Shown in pieces: positions 1 to 23,254 of a stretch of 64,000 nt of DNA (position 1 is its first letter; every line of letters begins with the position of its first letter). The stretch spans positions 15,723 to 79,722 of the IMG/VR virus record IMGVR_UViG_3300042389_001739. One strand, given 5' to 3'. The notes beneath the pieces were generated by a model that saw nothing but the letters and a program-made list of their open reading frames with translations, made no database searches and was not told the DNA's origin. The stretch is from a virus. A program made the translations under genes and the position numbers.

Positions 1-988
1 CCCCCTTGGTGCCCTGCGTCAGATCCACCTCCGCCAGCACGTTGTTGGTCAGCTGGTCCCGAATCGCGGCGCTGATGTCCGCCGGACTGGTTACCGTCGA
101 GATACTGGCGGCACCCATGACACAGATGCCGTTATCCAGCAGCTGCGCCAGCTCACTGCGGTCAAAGGTAATCAGCGGACTATGTACGGCCGCCAATTGG
201 TTGAACAGGTGAAACAGCAAGCTGATCGTGTTGTTGGCCACCGGATACAGCTGGGTCATACCAGGCTTGTACAGTGCGTTAATTCGCGCATTGTCAATCA
301 GGATCAGCGGACTGACCTTGAGCTCCAGCAGTTTCTGGAAGGCCGTGACCGCATTGCGACAAACCTGCTGTCCTTCGTTTGGACTGGGAATCGAGGCGAT
401 CACACCTACCCGTGGTGGTTTACCTTTGGATTCCATGTATTGCCGGGCAATCTGCACCAGCTTAGCCGCCGTACCGGAACCGGTGCCGCCGCCCAGCCCA
501 ACACAGATCAGACCGTAATCCATATTGTTACCCCAGGACCGCTGCAGCAAATCCCAGATTTCTTCTTCGTGTCCGCTCAGGCTCTGCTCGGCAAACCGGG
601 CGTCCTTGGCAGCACCACCCAGCTGCAAGGTGTGCCGCTGAATTTCTTCCGGCAAACCTTGAAAATCACTTTCGGCGGTGTTGAATAAACCGACGCGGCG
701 ATACCCCAGCCGGTGAAAGCTGGCAGCCAGTCGTGCGCCTCCCTGGCCTGAACCCAAAAACGCCATATTAAATGCAACGTCATAAGGGAACTGATCGTCC
801 ACGACAACCTGCGTCATGGCTTGCCGGTGTGACCCTGGATGCAGCGTCGCCGCCACATTACCGATCGGAACCACGCCTGGCGGTGGTGCGGCCACTGGAA
901 TTACATTCACTGCTTCTGGTTTCGGCTTTCGTTTACCGGACGCTTGATCCAGGGATTGAGCCAGGCGGGCATTCAGATCGTCACTCAT
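1..988 (-). CDS. Tubulin/FtsZ-family GTPase (PhuZ/TubZ-like), 3' end beyond window; absent from the ORF track
   Basis: Manual translation from ATG at 988 (ATGA overlap with upstream stop), open to the window edge: FLGSGQGGARLA (T1), FNTA (T2), GGAAKD (T3), CVGLGGGTGSG tubulin signature (nt 473-493), IPSPNEG (T5), LIDN (T6), TFDRSEL (T7-like). Confidence 0.93.
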   Translation of the reverse strand, partial: MSDDLNARLAQSLDQASGKRKPKPEAVNVIPVAAPPPGVVPIGNVAATLHPGSHRQAMTQVVVDDQFPYDVAFNMAFLGSGQGGARLAASFHRLGYRRVGLFNTAESDFQGLPEEIQRHTLQLGGAAKDARFAEQSLSGHEEEIWDLLQRSWGNNMDYGLICVGLGGGTGSGTAAKLVQIARQYMESKGKPPRVGVIASIPSPNEGQQVCRNAVTAFQKLLELKVSPLILIDNARINALYKPGMTQLYPVANNTISLLFHLFNQLAAVHSPLITFDRSELAQLLDNGICVMGAASISTVTSPADISAAIRDQLTNNVLAEVDLTQGTKG

Positions 989-1575
989 CGACTGTTCTCG
1001 CATAAAGACTTCAGGGCTTCAAACCGCAGATTCCTGACGTCCGTATTTGTCATTGGGAAAATCTGCGGAAACTGTTTACGCTGTTCATTGTACCGTGCGA
1101 TATAATGCTGCCGTATAGCTTTTAGCTGGTCCACCGTATAACTTCCTTTAGACCAGTGGGACAAAACCGTCAAGTCTTCCGCTTCCGTGGCTTGTATATC
1201 GACCACGATTGCGGCAACCGGGCGCCAAATCTCCAGAAACGGTGGCAAGGTCGGTGCGGAGATGACTACCTTGAGTGGAATCACGTCTGTAAACCGCCGA
1301 ATAAACTCACTCGGCCCTGGGTACGGTATCTCGTAATAGACCGGCAACTGATCGGAGAGCGGATGCACGTTGGCTTGTACGCAGATCGCTTCGTGAATCC
1401 GCTGTGCTTCAAAGTTTTGGTAATTTGTTTCATAAACGTGTCGCCCGTTGGCCACATCAATATCCTGACCAGGCCAAAGGACAGACCAACCCTGCTGCAA
1501 AAGATACTTTGAAACATAATGCGTGTAGGCTCCAGGCGTCCCGGCAATCAGCACATTGTCGGTATGATGCTTCAT
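985..1575 (-). CDS. Divergent sulfotransferase-like protein
   Basis: N-terminal VLIAGTPGAYT resembles the 5'-PSB loop (GxxRSGT) but lacks R/S; later segments NFEAQRIHEAI and APTLPPFLEIW resemble bacterial sulfotransferase motifs; lies in a glycosyltransferase cluster. Confidence 0.4.
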   Translation of the reverse strand: MKHHTDNVLIAGTPGAYTHYVSKYLLQQGWSVLWPGQDIDVANGRHVYETNYQNFEAQRIHEAICVQANVHPLSDQLPVYYEIPYPGPSEFIRRFTDVIPLKVVISAPTLPPFLEIWRPVAAIVVDIQATEAEDLTVLSHWSKGSYTVDQLKAIRQHYIARYNEQRKQFPQIFPMTNTDVRNLRFEALKSLCENSR

Positions 1576-4143: not shown

Positions 4144-6042
4144 TTACACTCCAAACTGCTGCTGCATCATCATCGCACCTCCCTGGGTGCGCGCTGACTG
4201 ACGAATCTCATCCATCTTTGCCCGCGTGATCGAGTGCAGCGTCGGGTTCCACTGGCGCAGTTGACGCAGCTGGGAATCCTTTACGGACTCAGGTAGGCCC
4301 AGCAGTTCGCTGGCCAGCTGCGAAGCGGCGGCTTGCAGATCGTTCGGTGTGACGGCGGCGTTAGGTCCCATGTTTTGAATGTAATCGGATACCGGTGCCA
4401 TCGTCGCACCACCCATACCGGGTTGCGGCGGCTGTCCGCCTGCCGGTGCCCCTCCCTGGTTAGGATCTGCCGGTGCACCACCTCCGCCTGCAGGTGCCAT
4501 TGGATTGACCCCCTTGGCGACCTGTGCGGCAAACCCGGACTGTTCCATCAACTCCTGGTTGCGTGCCTGCATTTCCTGCTGTTTACGCGCTTCGTCGGCA
4601 ATCCGTTTCTGTTCGGTTTCCCAGTCGTAACCGATTGCGGCCAGGCCTGACGTACCGGAAAGCTGTTGCCCCATCATCAGCTGCAGCGCAGACATCTGTT
4701 TCTGGACATCGTCGGCAATTGTTACACGCTTGAGGCTGGCCTTTACCGGTTCCCAGCTCTTGATCCGGCTGATGCTGCTTACCATCCACTGCACAAACAA
4801 GTTAGCGTCGCTCACCAATGGGCGGTGAGTGCTTTCAAACAAGCGCAAACCGACCGGTGCGGCCTGCACTGCCATGCTGCCGTTATAAAAATCCACCGGC
4901 GTGCCTGCTTCATTGAGCAAGGTTTCGTAACCCTGCTGAATCAGCTCGGTCGGTGCCAGTTGTTTGGCGTCACCGCCCAGCACCTGATAGTTCACAGGAA
5001 AGGGTAGCATTTGCCAGCTGGCCGGATCACGTCGTCGGCGATTGATCATATTACGCACCTGGGCGCGAAAGTCCCCGGCGGCATAAATCGACATCGGGTC
5101 CTGGGTGGAGATACCCCCGGCAGCTGTTCCGTTACGACTCTCGGGTGTGATCAGTCGAAACGGAATCACGTAGTCCATGGCGATGGCTTCATTGAACCGC
5201 CGCAACACCTGGACATACCAAATCTGGCGGTAGTTCACCAGGCTCCGGGGAATTCCCCAGCCCATATTGCGAATCCCAGCCAGGGTCGGCTCTTTCATAT
5301 GAAAAATTGCGTCTTTGTTAAACCGAAACAGCTTGTTGTAGCGCACCGCTTCCAGCACCTGCTTACTGGCGCGTTCAAGATGGTAAAGATTACCTTCGCG
5401 CACCATGCGCTTGTAATACTCAGGAATACGCCAGAGATAAGCCACTTCGTCCGTGTACGGATCGTGCAGCAATTCCATCTCGTGCGGATTCCATCGCTTT
5501 AAAATCAATTGATCTGATTCTTCTCGTGGTTTGTCTACGACCTGCCAGGCACCACGCCAGCCGGTTTGAGGACAACTGGCCACAAATTCAAAATCACCAT
5601 TGAACTCAAAATTAAAGTTGTCGTAAACCACTTTAAGTGGATACATCGCGCCAGTCTTAGGGCACTGCAAATACCGCCGAAACGGCACCATCACACTGGC
5701 GAACCCGTTACCATAGCATAACCTGTCCCGCAGCAACTGCCCGAGAAACGTGGTGGCATGCAGCGTGTCGTCCAGAAAATCTTTGTATTTTTTCTTCTCG
5801 TCATCGTTGGCATCACCGCCCAGCTCAATATCAGTCACGAAGTAACTGACCAGGCGTTCCATCGCCATCCGGTATGTACCCTGTACCATCCAGATATATT
5901 CCGACCACCAAAGCGCTGAGCGCATCGTGGTCGGCATCTGCGTTGTGGCAATGTCGTTAAACGGATCAGCAAATCCTACATCACCGGAAGCCGTGGCGGC
6001 TCCGCGGTTAAAAAACGGACTACTGGTACCGTACAGGGACAT
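4144..6042 (-). CDS. Probable phage portal protein
   Basis: 632 aa; CYGNGF, KRWNPHEM, IFHMKE...GWGIP portal-like motifs; coiled-coil then Gly/Pro/Gln low-complexity tail typical of large-phage portals. Confidence 0.65.
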   Translation of the reverse strand: MSLYGTSSPFFNRGAATASGDVGFADPFNDIATTQMPTTMRSALWWSEYIWMVQGTYRMAMERLVSYFVTDIELGGDANDDEKKKYKDFLDDTLHATTFLGQLLRDRLCYGNGFASVMVPFRRYLQCPKTGAMYPLKVVYDNFNFEFNGDFEFVASCPQTGWRGAWQVVDKPREESDQLILKRWNPHEMELLHDPYTDEVAYLWRIPEYYKRMVREGNLYHLERASKQVLEAVRYNKLFRFNKDAIFHMKEPTLAGIRNMGWGIPRSLVNYRQIWYVQVLRRFNEAIAMDYVIPFRLITPESRNGTAAGGISTQDPMSIYAAGDFRAQVRNMINRRRRDPASWQMLPFPVNYQVLGGDAKQLAPTELIQQGYETLLNEAGTPVDFYNGSMAVQAAPVGLRLFESTHRPLVSDANLFVQWMVSSISRIKSWEPVKASLKRVTIADDVQKQMSALQLMMGQQLSGTSGLAAIGYDWETEQKRIADEARKQQEMQARNQELMEQSGFAAQVAKGVNPMAPAGGGGAPADPNQGGAPAGGQPPQPGMGGATMAPVSDYIQNMGPNAAVTPNDLQAAASQLASELLGLPESVKDSQLRQLRQWNPTLHSITRAKMDEIRQSARTQGGAMMMQQQFGV

Positions 6043-12978: not shown

Positions 12979-13436
12979 TCCTCCAGGATTTTGTCGGCGT
13001 TCAGACCTGTCAGGATGTATTCGTTTTGGACCCAGCGGACAAACCGGGTGTAATCAGGATTAGCAAACTCATGCACCGCGTTGCCGGTTTCAGACAGGCC
13101 GCAGTCAAAATAAGTCCAACCCGGAAACACCAGACCGCCGCTGACGTTACAGGCCTTCAACATTGCCTCGGCTTCAGCGGGTGAACCGCCTGCGTTGAGG
13201 TAGGCGGCAAAAGCGCGCAACAAACCGAGCAAGCGTTTCTGCGCCGCCACCTGTGCGGCCGTAGGTTCCTTGAGCTGCTGCAGTGTATCGTACTGAATCA
13301 CCTGCGCATGCTCCGGTGCACGCAGGCCAAAGACGATACTGCTGTAAACATTATGCACGTCATGCTTGCGCTCGGCGTAATACCCAGCACGCGGCGTCAT
13401 CTTATCCCAGTTAAACATCTGATACAGCTCCGCCAT
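12975..13436 (-). CDS. Hypothetical protein
   Basis: 153 aa, 4-bp overlap with the downstream gene. Confidence 0.7.
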   Translation of the reverse strand: MAELYQMFNWDKMTPRAGYYAERKHDVHNVYSSIVFGLRAPEHAQVIQYDTLQQLKEPTAAQVAAQKRLLGLLRAFAAYLNAGGSPAEAEAMLKACNVSGGLVFPGWTYFDCGLSETGNAVHEFANPDYTRFVRWVQNEYILTGLNADKILEE

Positions 13437-15249: not shown

Positions 15250-15810
15250 TCACAACCGCCAGGCCAGCCCTGTCTGGATGTGGTCGATGAGCGCGGTGTA
15301 CGGCTGCACAACCAGCTGCATCGCATGCTTTTTACCACCCTTATGTACATGGCAACTGGACTGCGGCGGCACAAACATTTCCCAGTTACCGTTATGGATC
15401 ACCATCCCCTGTGCGAACCCTCGCCGCGGAAAAATCATTGCCAGCGGACGATCCGGGTACCGCTTGTACAGCTCTTCAAACCGAGATTCATAGCGCTGCA
15501 CTAGCGGCAAGCTGCGAAAGGTTTTAAACCAGAGCGGATGAATTGACCGCTGATCCTTATGAATCGGCGGTTCATCCGTCATGGCATCAGCAAACAGGTA
15601 AACCGGAAAAGTATTCACCACAGTATTGAAAGCTTCACAGGTGAAGTGGTCCGTAGTCGACAATTTCCTGATTTCCTGCTTGCAAGCCATGGACAGTTTC
15701 AGACGATTGGCTGTCCACTCAATACGAGCCGATTCCCACTGGCTGACCCGCCGTTCGGCCTGCTCGTAACGTGTAATTTTACTCAGTAATGGATGAAATG
15801 GATGATCCAT
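15250..15810 (-). CDS. Hypothetical protein
   Basis: 186 aa, starts 1 nt after the recA stop. Confidence 0.75.
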   Translation of the reverse strand: MDHPFHPLLSKITRYEQAERRVSQWESARIEWTANRLKLSMACKQEIRKLSTTDHFTCEAFNTVVNTFPVYLFADAMTDEPPIHKDQRSIHPLWFKTFRSLPLVQRYESRFEELYKRYPDRPLAMIFPRRGFAQGMVIHNGNWEMFVPPQSSCHVHKGGKKHAMQLVVQPYTALIDHIQTGLAWRL

Positions 15811-19039: not shown

Positions 19040-19691
19040 TGTTACTCCTAGTGGGAATATAGTTCACAATCTCATCTACAATCCGCTCTGGTTCAACCAG
19101 CGCGTTGTCTTTAACGCAGCAAATTCGCACCGATTTTACGGTGGGTTGATATTCTATCAGACGATCCCGGTAAAAAGCATTCACCTTTTCCAGAAGCGTC
19201 CGATCACGCTCATGCACGTCCAGTTTGCCGTCACGTTTTGCAACATTTTTTATTGCAAAATCCACCGGCATATCCAGGTAAACTAAAAGATCCGGTACGG
19301 GCAAACCAAACGTACCGTGTTCCAGTTTATCCAGGTATTTCAATAACCGATCCTGTTCTGCTCCTTCCGTTTTTGCGGCCAGATAGGCCAGGTTTGAGGC
19401 GACATACCGGTCCACAATCGCGATCGACTGTCCGTCTGCCGCCGCCTGCAGCTGATGCTGATCGGAATCAAATCGATTGATTGCCCACAGGGTACTACAA
19501 AACTCGGGAGTAATCGCCTGATGATACTTGTTATCCAAAATACGGCGAATCAACTGACCGCTGGCTGATTGATATTCCGGATACTTGACTACATACACCG
19601 GTAAACTCATTCGCTGGCGCAAACGCCACAATAAACGGTTAGCCGCGGTGGTTTTACCAGAACCGTCAATTCCCTCCAGATTAATGATCAC
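19032..19691 (-). CDS. tmk: Thymidylate kinase
   Basis: LEGIDGSGKTT, DRYVASNLAY, PDLLVYLD motifs. Confidence 0.93.
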   Translation of the reverse strand: MIINLEGIDGSGKTTAANRLLWRLRQRMSLPVYVVKYPEYQSASGQLIRRILDNKYHQAITPEFCSTLWAINRFDSDQHQLQAAADGQSIAIVDRYVASNLAYLAAKTEGAEQDRLLKYLDKLEHGTFGLPVPDLLVYLDMPVDFAIKNVAKRDGKLDVHERDRTLLEKVNAFYRDRLIEYQPTVKSVRICCVKDNALVEPERIVDEIVNYIPTRSNNG

Positions 19692-22600
19692 GCTTTGCCT
19701 TTCCGCTTACGCCATAGCTCATAGGACTTGTCCTCCAGGTTTCGTTGTGGTCTGACTTTGGTTGCCGCCACGATCGATCGTTGCGGCTTTGTTGGGGCAT
19801 CTTTGCTGTACGTTACCACACAACCCTCCGCCCCGCCGTGTCCGGTCGGCAGGCCGCGTTCTACCGCCTCGGCATAAACTAGCTTTTCGCCCCAATAGTT
19901 CATCACCTCGGCTTCGATACCAAGATAATACGGACCGTCTCCTGTCGGAATCCCCTCCAAAGTACTGGGGTAAATCGGCACGGCCTTCCGCATGTAAGTC
20001 GGCAAAACATATTCGCAGACGTGTTTAACGTACCTGTCCGGCACTTCCAATAAAATGGCGTCATGAATCTGCAGCACGACGTTAAAGAGATTATGCCCCT
20101 TTTTAGCCTGGCGTAGCTTGTAATCATAAAGATAAGCCAACGCACGCGACACCGCACTGGCGATCATGGACTGAATCGGGAAGTTCATGGCTTGGCGCCC
20201 AAACTCCGCCCGCAGAGCCTGATCCCGACTGGAATCCGGAAACCGCCGGAAGCGGCCGTAGCAGTTACAAAGCCAGCGACTTTTAACTTGTTCCTGCGTG
20301 TTTTCGTCCGTGTAGGTACCTGCGGCCCGGTCCTGACACTCCTGAAAGAAAGGTCGCAGTTTAGGATACATTTCGAAAATAGCGTTGATCACGGCTTGCG
20401 CTTCATCAACAGAAATGTCAATTTTCTGCTCCTTTGCGGCCACGGCAATCGCCTTAGCCCCTCGCCCGTAGGCGATTCCGAAAATCACGGACTTGGCCAC
20501 AATCCGGATATGCTTTTTGCCAATGGCTTCCAGCCCACTTTTGGTGGGCGGACACTGCAGTTTAAAAGCAAAAACCGCCACATTGCTGTGGATGTCGTAG
20601 TAATCCGGATGATCTTCCGGCAACTGATTCCGCTGCGCGTGCGCAATCATATTCGGATCACCCGACATTACCGCCATCCCGAACAGTTCGGCGCCGACAT
20701 AGTCGGCTTCCACCAGCACATGTCCCGGTGACGCTTTAAGCACGCTTCTCAGACTATATTTGTAATGCTCGCCAAGCAACCGCTTGTAGTCCGGATCGCG
20801 TTGCTTGGAGATATTCTGCAGATTCGGTCGAGCACTGGACCAACGGCCAGTTTCCTTAGTCTGATAAATGTGGGTTCGTACTTTACCGTCATCGCAAACC
20901 AGTGAAGCCAACCCATCCTCGTATTCCATGTAACCGTCTTCGTTGTACTTTGCCTCCTCGGTCTTGTCGTCACGGCTGGGCGGACGCAGTACTGTCTTTA
21001 ATACCTGATCAAGAAACCGATAATCCCGCAGCATGTCGATCAGACGCGCCTGATGCTCGTGTTCGGCGTCTTGTGCCAGTAGCGACAGCGCCTGTTTATT
21101 GGTAGAAGGCGAGTGGTTGTACTCCTGCTGCTGTCGCTTAATCTCCAGCCAGGGTCGCGGTGGTTTGGAGGTGTCAAAAACCGGGGTCAGTTTAAGCGAA
21201 GTTGCCCCTGGTGGTCGAATCTTGACCTCTTTCCCGGTTTCCTTGTTAATCCGGCCGTTGAGTTTTTCTCCGAATAAAAACTCCCGAACGTGCTGTGTCG
21301 AACGCACGTTGAACTCTGGCCAGTTAATTTCCGCTTTAAGTCGATTTTCCAGGTCTGCCCGTGCGTCCATAAACCGGGCCGTAAGAAAATCCACGCGGGA
21401 GCGGTCGACCATGATCCCGGTGCGGTGAATTTCCAACACCGCCGGGGTAGCAATCTGAGATTCCCAAAAGGCCTCCCGGCAGTTATTACCTTCGTAATCT
21501 TCATCCAGCAACAAGTCGAATTTGTAGAACAACCGCAAGGTTACGTCCGCGTCGTACATACCGTACGGCAGAAGAATTTCGTCAGGGCACATGCCGTACC
21601 CTTCGAGATCGCTGCTGCTCAGACCCTGCTGGCGACAGTAATCAATCTTCCACTTATCCAGCTCCCGGTCATAACGCGGTGCAGTGGTGTAACGCATGGC
21701 AAGCGTTTCCAGATTGTACTTGGCCGTCTCCTCGATAGCATGTGCCATCAAACCAGTGTCAGCACCGCCCTCGTATTTGGTGCGATACCAGGCGGGAACA
21801 ACTTCACCCGCTTTGAAACCATCCTCCGCATACAACTTATGCAGCTTGGTGCCAGGCACCAGCGTGTAGTCGTAGAGCGGTGCCATGAAACATTCCTGCA
21901 GGTCGATGCCATAATCAACCAGCCACTCCAAGTCCGCGTTAAAGAAGTGCCCAATCACGCGTTTGCGGCGAAATTCAACAGCACCGTTTGCATGCTCGTA
22001 ACGGCCGCCCTTGAAAAAAACGTTAAGGAGTTTAATCGTTTCCTGCAAAATACCGCGTGCATTGGTTTCCTGCGGTGTGCCGCAAAAACCAAGCGTTACG
22101 TCACCCCCGGCGTCATGCAGTTTGATCCCGATCGCATGTTTTGGTCGCCAGGCAAACTGAATTGTGCGCATGTAGGTGTCGTGGTTGACCGGATGCTGAC
22201 CGTGCCACTCCGCATCCACCGCAATCACATCGTCAGACTTTTCAGGATCCTGCTCGATGTTTACCAGCAGATCAAACAACTGTGCGTGATTATCGACCAC
22301 TACGTGATTGACCGTTTCGGTTTCGCCTAAATCTGCGCCTCGCAGCAAAGCCGCAAACCGGGCTAAACCACTTTCCAGCTGACGGAGTGCGGATTGATCA
22401 CGGATGACCTGTTTGGGATGGACCACGGTAATGACTTTGGCTTCCTGCCAGCTGGTTTCAGCCAGTTCCGCAGTGTACGCCGTGTTATACCGAAAAGTAC
22501 CAACTTGACCCAGCATATCCGTAACGCTGGCTTGCGGACCAAGTATGGCTTTACTGGCATCTGTGCCCAGACAGAGAATGTACTTGGGCTGTACGATTTT

Positions 22601-23254
22601 AATTTCCTGCATCAACAGGTGCATGCCGTCGTTGACCCAGGAAGCTTTTAACGTTGTCTTGAAGTTTGGGGGCTTAAACTTGACCAGGTGTGTCAGGTAA
22701 AAGTCATCCAGCCGCTCAATCTTCAACCGCTGCATTAAATCGAACAGGAGCTCGCCGTCTGCGTCGCTGAGGCAGGCTTTATACTCCAGTTCCGTATCCC
22801 AGGGGTTTTTATTGATAATCATCACGCGTGCGGGGCGAGGTCCCGCGATGTCCAAGTGTTTAAGCGATTGCCCTCGCAAGTGACCCGGTAAAAACTTTGC
22901 GATTTTTTCCTGATGCGGTCCGACTTCCACCGGCATGGAAAAGTCGACCGTCCGCAATGCCCGCTGAATCAGGCGCTGCAAATCTTCGCTGTACTCCAGC
23001 TGCCGCACCTTTTTATCCTGCGCGTTTTTAACCTCTACAATTTTGCTCTTAGTGTCACCCAGCGCGTTGACGTGCGAAACAAATGACGAATTGGGGGGCA
23101 GTACCGGCAGTCCAGGAGCATCCAGCGGAAAGATTGCGTCGCCCGTATGCATTGCCGCAATACGGGCCGCCTGGCGCTGCTCTAGCAGCAGCGTATTCTT
23201 TACAGGCGGTAAACTACCGTCCCGCATTCCTTTCAATTTACGTGGCGGAATCAT
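19688..23254 (-). CDS. polA: Family A DNA polymerase with N-terminal uracil-DNA-glycosylase-like domain and 3'-5' exonuclease
   Basis: UDG4-like THLVKFKP, EIKIVQPKYILCLG, VVHP; exonuclease VDAEW, GHFFNAD, YGMYDAD; polymerase TGRWSSARPNLQN, ADYVGAEL, KSVIFGIAYG, NFPIQS, QIHDA. Confidence 0.95.
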   Translation of the reverse strand: MIPPRKLKGMRDGSLPPVKNTLLLEQRQAARIAAMHTGDAIFPLDAPGLPVLPPNSSFVSHVNALGDTKSKIVEVKNAQDKKVRQLEYSEDLQRLIQRALRTVDFSMPVEVGPHQEKIAKFLPGHLRGQSLKHLDIAGPRPARVMIINKNPWDTELEYKACLSDADGELLFDLMQRLKIERLDDFYLTHLVKFKPPNFKTTLKASWVNDGMHLLMQEIKIVQPKYILCLGTDASKAILGPQASVTDMLGQVGTFRYNTAYTAELAETSWQEAKVITVVHPKQVIRDQSALRQLESGLARFAALLRGADLGETETVNHVVVDNHAQLFDLLVNIEQDPEKSDDVIAVDAEWHGQHPVNHDTYMRTIQFAWRPKHAIGIKLHDAGGDVTLGFCGTPQETNARGILQETIKLLNVFFKGGRYEHANGAVEFRRKRVIGHFFNADLEWLVDYGIDLQECFMAPLYDYTLVPGTKLHKLYAEDGFKAGEVVPAWYRTKYEGGADTGLMAHAIEETAKYNLETLAMRYTTAPRYDRELDKWKIDYCRQQGLSSSDLEGYGMCPDEILLPYGMYDADVTLRLFYKFDLLLDEDYEGNNCREAFWESQIATPAVLEIHRTGIMVDRSRVDFLTARFMDARADLENRLKAEINWPEFNVRSTQHVREFLFGEKLNGRINKETGKEVKIRPPGATSLKLTPVFDTSKPPRPWLEIKRQQQEYNHSPSTNKQALSLLAQDAEHEHQARLIDMLRDYRFLDQVLKTVLRPPSRDDKTEEAKYNEDGYMEYEDGLASLVCDDGKVRTHIYQTKETGRWSSARPNLQNISKQRDPDYKRLLGEHYKYSLRSVLKASPGHVLVEADYVGAELFGMAVMSGDPNMIAHAQRNQLPEDHPDYYDIHSNVAVFAFKLQCPPTKSGLEAIGKKHIRIVAKSVIFGIAYGRGAKAIAVAAKEQKIDISVDEAQAVINAIFEMYPKLRPFFQECQDRAAGTYTDENTQEQVKSRWLCNCYGRFRRFPDSSRDQALRAEFGRQAMNFPIQSMIASAVSRALAYLYDYKLRQAKKGHNLFNVVLQIHDAILLEVPDRYVKHVCEYVLPTYMRKAVPIYPSTLEGIPTGDGPYYLGIEAEVMNYWGEKLVYAEAVERGLPTGHGGAEGCVVTYSKDAPTKPQRSIVAATKVRPQRNLEDKSYELWRKRKGKA

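Follow-up and report, generated by a model that had tools for sequence, protein, structure and literature searches.

To our knowledge, work on phage tubulins has been limited to two systems, PhuZ and TubZ. PhuZ centers the phage nucleus and delivers capsids, and TubZ segregates plasmid prophages together with TubR and tubC, the tubR gene lying upstream of the tubulin gene in TubZRC. A flexible tether ending in a conserved terminal peptide is the means by which FtsZ, TubZ, and PhuZ attach partners or adjacent subunits. A further tubulin/FtsZ-type gene is located at the start of a 64,000-nucleotide (nt) stretch of viral DNA (here, the window), which comprises bases 15723 to 79722 of the 79,722-bp IMG/VR record IMGVR_UViG_3300042389_001739; the upstream 15.7 kb of the record was also read. 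The record is rated 38% complete by CheckV, implying a genome of ~200 kb. Taken together, the analysis suggests, with a probability of about 0.5, that this gene supplies a phage-made cytomotive filament, co-expressed with a block of putative portal and glycosyltransferase genes, which positions or moves phage assemblies.

The tubulin open reading frame (ORF) occupies positions 2 to 1003 on the minus strand and runs off the window start. The full gene (contig positions 15448 to 16725) encodes 425 amino acids (aa) without stops or frameshifts, its other 91 codons sitting before the window start (contig 15448 to 15722; ~274 bp). A first-pass annotation of the window had proposed a tubulin/FtsZ-family GTPase and feared truncation or frameshift just outside the window, and recovery of the intact gene rules this out. 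Translation may start at an ATG at window position 988 (420 aa), giving an N terminus that agrees with those of homologues, or at an in-frame ATG at position 1003 (425 aa). Membership of the superfamily is borne out by the ORF itself, by a match to the Pfam Tubulin profile PF00091 (39.7 bits versus a cutoff of 33 bits), and by the GTP-binding loops, including the GGGTGSG that had been read from the window, all found in place and conserved in 101 diverse homologues with identities down to 26%. In the T7 loop, which in this superfamily provides acidic residues that activate GTP hydrolysis in the adjoining subunit, D281 is invariant in this set and position 284 is Asp or Glu in 98 members. The Tubulin_2 profile gives 27.5 bits for the query.

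Profiles for the established families fit less well. Among the same 101 members, PF00091 is matched by 100, Tubulin_2 by 73, and TubZ-like_C by 22, and FtsZ_C, Tubulin_C, and the PhuZ C-domain PF22334 by none. The query itself does not match TubZ-like_C (PF22453), even at E values up to 1, and scores 36.6 bits against the FtsZ equivalog TIGR00065 (NCBIfam), whose cutoff is 295.2. No PHROG family matches it. The best hit of a PDB sequence search was Bacillus cereus TubZ/RepX (4ei7; 8.7e-11), followed by CetZ (3zid; 1.5e-6) and many FtsZs at ~1e-5.

An AlphaFold2 (AF2) model built on the homologue alignment has a mean predicted local distance difference test score (pLDDT) of 92.3 and was compared with known structures by Foldseek and VIA-align. 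It has the two-domain tubulin fold, in which a Rossmann-type GTPase domain is followed by helix H7 and the activation domain, with all 716 aligned tubulin-family chains at Z scores of ≥8. TubZ-Bc (4ei7) is nearest (Z, 37.2; root mean square deviation [rmsd], 3.7 Å over 336 residues), followed by CetZ2 (Z, 35.8; rmsd, 2.7 Å over 316 residues), TubZ-Bt (2xka; Z, 35.4), c-st TubZ (Z, 32.0), FtsZ (Z, about 30), and eukaryotic tubulin (Z, about 29). PhuZ is absent among the best 50 PDB rows. In the BFVD collection of predicted viral structures, an uncultured Caudovirales phage supplies the top match, an “FtsZ” (E value, 2.6e-32), and PhuZ reaches template modeling (TM) scores of 0.46 to 0.52. The product would be a complete and catalytically competent GTPase of the tubulin/FtsZ superfamily, representing a distinct, TubZ-like lineage.

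Some longer relatives carry insertions in the loops. LAGLIDADG inteins are found in relatives of 807 to 925 aa, in the T4 loop of P0207, P0211, and P0253 and the T1 loop of P0190; the T4 inteins are inserted exactly at GGG|TGSG, with Thr or Ser as the +1 residue. Their position inside T4 and T1 argues for strong functional constraint on both loops. P0212 (745 aa) has an unidentified insert of ~340 aa at the T7 loop. P0246 and P0265 (~600 aa) are tubulin-AAA_lid_14 fusions, and the other long relatives scanned contained no extra domain; none of the long relatives scanned was a fusion of a glycosyltransferase with tubulin. A search for longer (fused) relatives returned none, which is weak evidence.

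A word-indexed search retrieved >300 homologues at 50 to 87% identity, on contigs of up to 235 kb. Those bearing a label are all called “cell division GTPase FtsZ” by the Joint Genome Institute (JGI), so that the earlier description of the gene as unannotated does not quite hold. In an exhaustive search of clusters at 50% identity, 843 had E values of <1e-3 and 148 had E values of <1e-30. A tblastn search of 50,697 GenBank phages, in which very near records may have been masked, produced no match, and therefore no cultured relative was identified; a plasmid search yielded only Bacillales TubZ-like matches at ~25% identity. The references used were PhuZ of phiKZ and 201phi2-1, TubZ of c-st and pBtoxis, and Escherichia coli FtsZ. 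Against the family profile, c-st TubZ scores 100.7 bits, pBtoxis TubZ scores 77, E. coli FtsZ scores 72, and the PhuZ proteins score 17 to 25. A tree of 96 rows, built from sequences other than CetZ (IQ-TREE, LG+C20, quick search), places the query in a clade of 35 rows (Shimodaira-Hasegawa approximate likelihood ratio test [SH-aLRT], 98), with the TubZ, PhuZ, and FtsZ references all outside. The TubZ and PhuZ references are, however, long branches placed among poorly resolved basal branches of the same broad set. The separate phage tubulin lineage envisaged there gains from this exclusion and from the missing PhuZ profile match, but the lineage is not wholly apart from TubZ: TubZ is the nearest solved fold, and the 22 members matching TubZ-like_C limit the separation.

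This well-supported clade consists of uncultured lake and marine phages with genomes of ~200 kb, and the tubulin is one of its core genes. It is present once per genome, with one tubulin counted in each of five phage records, of which one is 94% complete. The tubulin is also demonstrably under strong purifying selection. On a Planctomycetota chromosome (L039/L046, G600:C32:115858-117045), a family homologue scores 437 bits against the family profile and is 33% identical to the query; among its neighbors are genes that, on visual inspection, resemble ilvC, acetolactate synthase, flhA, and HU. A second copy (L045, G600:C57) adjoins an AAA ATPase resembling the 621-aa one of the phage. Since there are chromosomal members in Planctomycetota, the wider family is not restricted to phages. 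No paper on this tubulin lineage was found in the searchable literature, and a published survey of the tubulin superfamily makes no mention of phages (PMC9871819). Phage tubulins as such are already known, and it is the lineage, architecture, and context that appear to be undescribed in that literature.

The architecture of the termini is distinctive. Structural alignments begin at residues 72 to 78, and in the AF2 model residues 2 to 21 form a helix and residues 22 to 72 form a low-confidence Pro-rich linker, in agreement with the ~70-aa Pro-rich N-terminal extension noted previously. The same order is found in 117 close homologues as well as in the distant loci: a short conserved amphipathic peptide (h-E-x-x-M/L-x-x-S-L-x-x-A-x-G), a linker rich in Pro and Ala whose length varies widely, and a conserved pre-core segment (GxVNIGNxAAxLxPxxH, whose fourth position is also given as x, GxVxIGN). 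The C-terminal end, ...GGLAQFLGVND, is nearly invariant in the same set. The long tether of the query tubulin is N-terminal. The C-terminal tail, which is short and hydrophobic, is neither long and basic nor acidic like that of PhuZ. By analogy with the tethered peptides of other tubulins, the two conserved terminal peptides suggest docking sites. In many relatives (L007:9896-9976, L015:9884-9970, L016, L017, P0011, P0017, P0023, and others), the frame is open for ~25 to 30 codons further upstream, and this extension carries a conserved R-x-x-GE(Y/F)G-x-(K/R)-x-F. Such relatives may have a third N-terminal peptide, which is excluded in the query phage because of an in-frame TGA at window positions 1019 to 1021.

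The tubulin gene is the second-last gene of a conserved block that runs, in order of transcription, from the putative portal gene through genes for a family 2 glycosyltransferase (GT2), a TOD1/MUCI70-like protein, a GT-B-like protein, and a sulfotransferase-like protein to the tubulin, a 109-aa protein, and a hairpin terminator (Table 1). The same order recurs in 15 loci from IMG/VR and on one contig of a metagenome-assembled genome (MAG). Across these 16 loci, the tubulin is 60 to 83% identical, the putative portal (63 to 86% in relatives) being the only other member of the block with similar conservation. The sulfotransferase-like gene, which has no Pfam match, lies upstream of the tubulin gene in all 16. 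The tubulin ATG at position 988 overlaps the TGA of the sulfotransferase-like gene as ATGA, and the same overlap joins the two genes upstream. The coupling to a portal-glycosyltransferase operon that had been proposed is upheld by this overlap, with two corrections: the immediate upstream gene is sulfotransferase-like rather than a glycosyltransferase gene, and the portal is only putative. The block has a single convincing terminator, a 14-bp perfect hairpin followed by a T-run directly after the 109-aa gene, and promoter and terminator scans inside the block remained at chance level.

Table 1. Positions of the tubulin gene, its motifs, and the co-oriented genes in the 64,000-nt window
Feature	Window position	Strand	Basis
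Tubulin gene, in-window part (residues 6-334 of 425)	1..988	-	PF00091; AF2 model; TubZ-like fold
N-terminal extension (residues 1-72)	788..1003	-	AF2 model; conservation in 117 homologues
T1 loop GSGQGG, GTP phosphate binding (residues 84-89)	737..754	-	G84, G86, and G89 (near-)invariant in 101 diverse homologues
GAAK motif	605..616	-	Located in sequence
T4 tubulin signature GGGTGSG (residues 171-177)	473..493	-	Near-invariant in 101 homologues
T7 loop TFDRSE with catalytic acidic D281 and E284	152..169	-	Conservation in 101 homologues
Sulfotransferase-like, 196 aa	985..1575	-	ESM Atlas features, 0.92; TM, 0.71 to Sulfotransfer_3 clusters
GT-B (GT4/GT1-like) glycosyltransferase candidate, 354 aa	1572..2636	-	Weak Pfam matches only (E, 0.02-0.03); syntenic in 14 of 16 loci
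TOD1/MUCI70-type glycosyltransferase-like, 234 aa	2655..3359	-	PF04765, 1.3e-19
Family 2 glycosyltransferase, 269 aa	3332..4141	-	PF00535, 1.2e-9
Putative portal, 632 aa, first gene of the co-oriented block	4144..6042	-	ESM Atlas look-alike

An 8-nt overlap links the 109-aa gene to the stop of the tubulin gene. Alignments of this small partner (~100 aa) extend to the farthest loci, and it is still conserved in the 60%-identity clade; a word search found only seven sequence homologues. Its predicted structure (pLDDT, 74.7) combines two helices with a sheet of three strands. In several relatives, a conserved gene of ~235 to 260 aa follows the small partner (L003 to L007, 11650-12480; L015 to L017, 11765-12750), with the start consensus ...PLFxGFVAxxxQ... 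/ ...FFPYLLxLF.... The query phage lacks this gene at that place and has unrelated variable genes after the terminator. Elsewhere in the window, positions 19688 to 23254 of the minus strand encode a 1,188-aa fusion of uracil-DNA glycosylase, 3′-5′ exonuclease, and family A DNA polymerase, consistent with the PolA noted in the first pass; RecA-like, DnaB-like, and SbcC/Rad50-like genes are found near it. The window contains no tRNA genes.

In the proposed mechanism, the tubulin would polymerize head to tail into GTP-hydrolyzing (cytomotive) filaments in the infected cell and would be made late, alongside the putative portal and the glycan-tailoring enzymes. Co-production with the putative portal block is expected because of the translational coupling and the common terminator. 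The N-terminal peptide on its Pro/Ala linker and the C-terminal ...AQFLGVND may bind neighboring subunits or cargo, and the ~100-aa protein encoded directly downstream would be the best adaptor candidate. Such filaments would serve to position or transport procapsids, portal complexes, or DNA without a chimallin nucleus, probably in a planctomycete lacking FtsZ. A late-expressed filament would perhaps have a role in virion assembly; the capsid trafficking suggested in the first-pass annotation is purely an inference.

Several observations weigh against this filament model. The portal assignment is a language-model look-alike lead, as the putative portal was matched by nothing in Pfam, PHROGs, or the PDB sequence search and resembles clusters with Phage_portal, Portal_T4, and Portal_Mu by ESM Atlas features of 0.92 to 0.93. 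The minus strand carries nearly every gene of the contig, and this one-strand layout makes a position in the portal operon weaker evidence of shared function; moreover, replication genes lie on the same strand a few kilobases upstream of the putative portal gene. The sequencing runs in which the phage locus was found include no RNA run. Only ~45% of the broad family shows the C-terminal motif. No structural relative of the small partner was found (best Z, 3.5), and with its fold unrecognizable, its role as an adaptor of the tubulin is a guess. The deep branches of the tree are poorly resolved, and the relation of TubZ and PhuZ to the family is unsettled because their references are long branches among the basal ones.

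Evidence on the host comes from three indirect lines. A search of 185,579 species genomes yielded one close relative only, a 45-kb contig of entirely phage-like content that had been placed in a “Gemmataceae bacterium” MAG. Binning as proof of host was rejected: sampled contigs of this bin have G+C contents of 0.43 to 0.56, and the bin may be mixed, which makes this first line weak. A Gemmatales genome (L032, G179:C99:8621-9132) contains a truncated, stop-interrupted C-terminal half of the tubulin at 54% identity, on a cellular contig of 59% G+C whose neighboring genes are Abi_2 (abortive infection), DUF1501, GSDH/FG-GAP, and WD40 genes. Four paralogous phage genes located before the window (contig 178-819, 3766-4644, 5548-6075, and 6063-6620) share a conserved domain, ...EFCxLHxACxxGRxWAL...ECW..., that has no Pfam match; in a search restricted to Gemmatales, homologues of this family were found in 113 of 267 genomes, often in many copies and in one genome as 12 identical copies. 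These lines point to the order Gemmatales (Planctomycetota), and a planctomycete host is given somewhat more than even odds. An FtsZ scoring above the curated cutoff is encoded by 13 of 14 control genomes but by none of the 267 Gemmatales genomes. The planctomycete idea raised in the first-pass annotation, where the absence of FtsZ from the phylum was noted, gains indirect support from the three lines. The phage is present in many lake-water metagenomes.

A bolder version of the filament model, which must be regarded as tentative and rather doubtful, is that the family constitutes a third widespread phage tubulin lineage, a core gene of ~200-kb lake and marine phages of FtsZ-less planctomycetes (Gemmatales). 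It would form a phage-made cytoskeleton with neither a phage nucleus nor TubR/tubC and, by means of a new architecture comprising an N-terminal docking tether, the AQFLGV peptide, and a dedicated small adaptor, would organize virion assembly or virion glycosylation rather than DNA segregation.

Other functions can be weighed against the tests for known systems. PhuZ centers phage DNA (PMC4244570), and by that precedent the tubulin could form a spindle lacking a chimallin shell, in which bipolar dynamic filaments hold replicating DNA or a replication factory at midcell. This would suit a jumbo-phage tubulin that is single copy and highly conserved and is encoded within 10 to 20 kb of same-strand replication genes. 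However, the query matches neither of the PhuZ profiles PF22334 (TubZ_C_2) and phrog_4733, both of which recovered phiKZ PhuZ as a positive control (1.7e-37 and 4.6e-118, respectively). PhuZ is also structurally far, by the TM scores and the absence from the best PDB rows given above, and the hydrophobic tail ...AQFLGVND is unlike its acidic one. Chimallin (PF25677/phrog_4795) was absent from the query contig and four relatives, one of them 94% complete, in a search that a very divergent shell could escape and in which phiKZ matched at 1,121 bits. A DNA-centering spindle is therefore considered unlikely.

Partition of the TubZRC type, in which the genome would be segregated as a plasmid prophage or pseudolysogen (as for c-st and pBtoxis) with the small protein as DNA adaptor, is improbable. 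The nearest solved structures and nearest named sequences are those of TubZ, TubZ-like_C is matched by some family members, and the tubulin is coupled to a small gene conserved along with it. In addition, no tyrosine or serine recombinase (integrase or resolvase) was found in five phage records, and a non-integrating prophage would need none. Nevertheless, no TubR-like gene adjoins the tubulin: the upstream neighbor is sulfotransferase-like, and the small gene lies downstream, unlike tubR, and encodes two helices and a three-stranded sheet with no helix-turn-helix relative. The absence of chimallin and tubR reported for the window thus stands, the former now extended to relatives and the latter established at the gene's neighbors. 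Iterated tubC-like or centromere-like repeats were not found within contig positions 13000 to 17000 (~2 kb on each side) beyond chance two- or three-copy matches, there is no long basic C-terminal tail, and the tubulin gene is coupled on both sides inside the putative portal/glycosyltransferase block rather than forming a cassette with its own promoter.

Least probable of all is a host-directed effector that copolymerizes with or mimics a host tubulin-family protein, blocking division or reshaping the cell, with the FLG peptide imitating the FtsZ C-terminal peptide that binds FtsA and ZipA: the xFLG motif is superficially like the E. coli FtsZ tail (...DIPAFLRKQAD) and some Planctomycetota chromosomes encode broad-family homologues as possible partners, but the query falls far below the FtsZ equivalog cutoff and lacks an FtsZ_C domain, a Gemmatales host would offer no FtsZ target, and the strong conservation of the gene alongside a small partner of its own points to a phage system that is self-contained.

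The filament model draws its interest from the size and strong conservation of the family (hundreds of clusters, with contigs of 150 to 235 kb), which fits neither the PhuZ nor the TubZ system, having no shell, no adaptor-centromere pair, a tether at the opposite end, and a fixed place beside a putative portal and sugar-modifying enzymes. If filaments form, tubulin cytoskeletons of jumbo phages would serve more than nucleus positioning, and if the hosts are planctomycetes, a phage would supply a tubulin-type cytomotive filament to cells that gave up FtsZ. The family also offers new material on the relationships among the TubZ, CetZ, and FtsZ branches.

Compared with the known systems, PhuZ (phiKZ gp39 and 201phi2-1 gp59) resembles the query as a single-copy tubulin of jumbo phages, and a filament acting on phage cargo would be expected in both. 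The two differ in profile matches, in fold, and in the low scores of PhuZ against the family profile, and the query clade combines PolA-type replication with the lack of chimallin. FtsZ shares the superfamily, the loops, the T7 chemistry, and the design of a flexible linker with a short conserved terminal peptide, but its tether is C-terminal whereas that of the query is N-terminal, and the TIGR00065 score (36.6 versus 295 bits) and the lack of FtsZ_C in all 101 members set the family apart. CetZ (Haloferax CetZ1/2, 4b46/4b45; Methanosaeta, 3zid) is statistically tied with TubZ in fold and is the second-best PDB sequence match; it differs in being archaeal and chromosomal, and the tree rows were drawn from groups other than CetZ. 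TubZ and CetZ are held to be related (PMC9871819), with which the fold tie agrees. TubZ (TubZ/RepX of Bacillus plasmids, with pBtoxis TubZ-Bt, 2xka/3m89, and B. cereus TubZ, 4ei7; Clostridium phage c-st TubZ, 3v3t/4xcq) is the best match among solved structures and PDB sequences and shares the GTP-binding loops, the T7 acidic residues, and carriage on mobile elements. In contrast to TubZ, to which it is ~20% identical, the query lies outside the TubZ reference branches and has no TubR gene, tubC repeats, or self-standing cassette; its tether is N-terminal, its C-terminal tail is short and hydrophobic, and its gene belongs to a block of virion (putative portal) and glycosylation genes.

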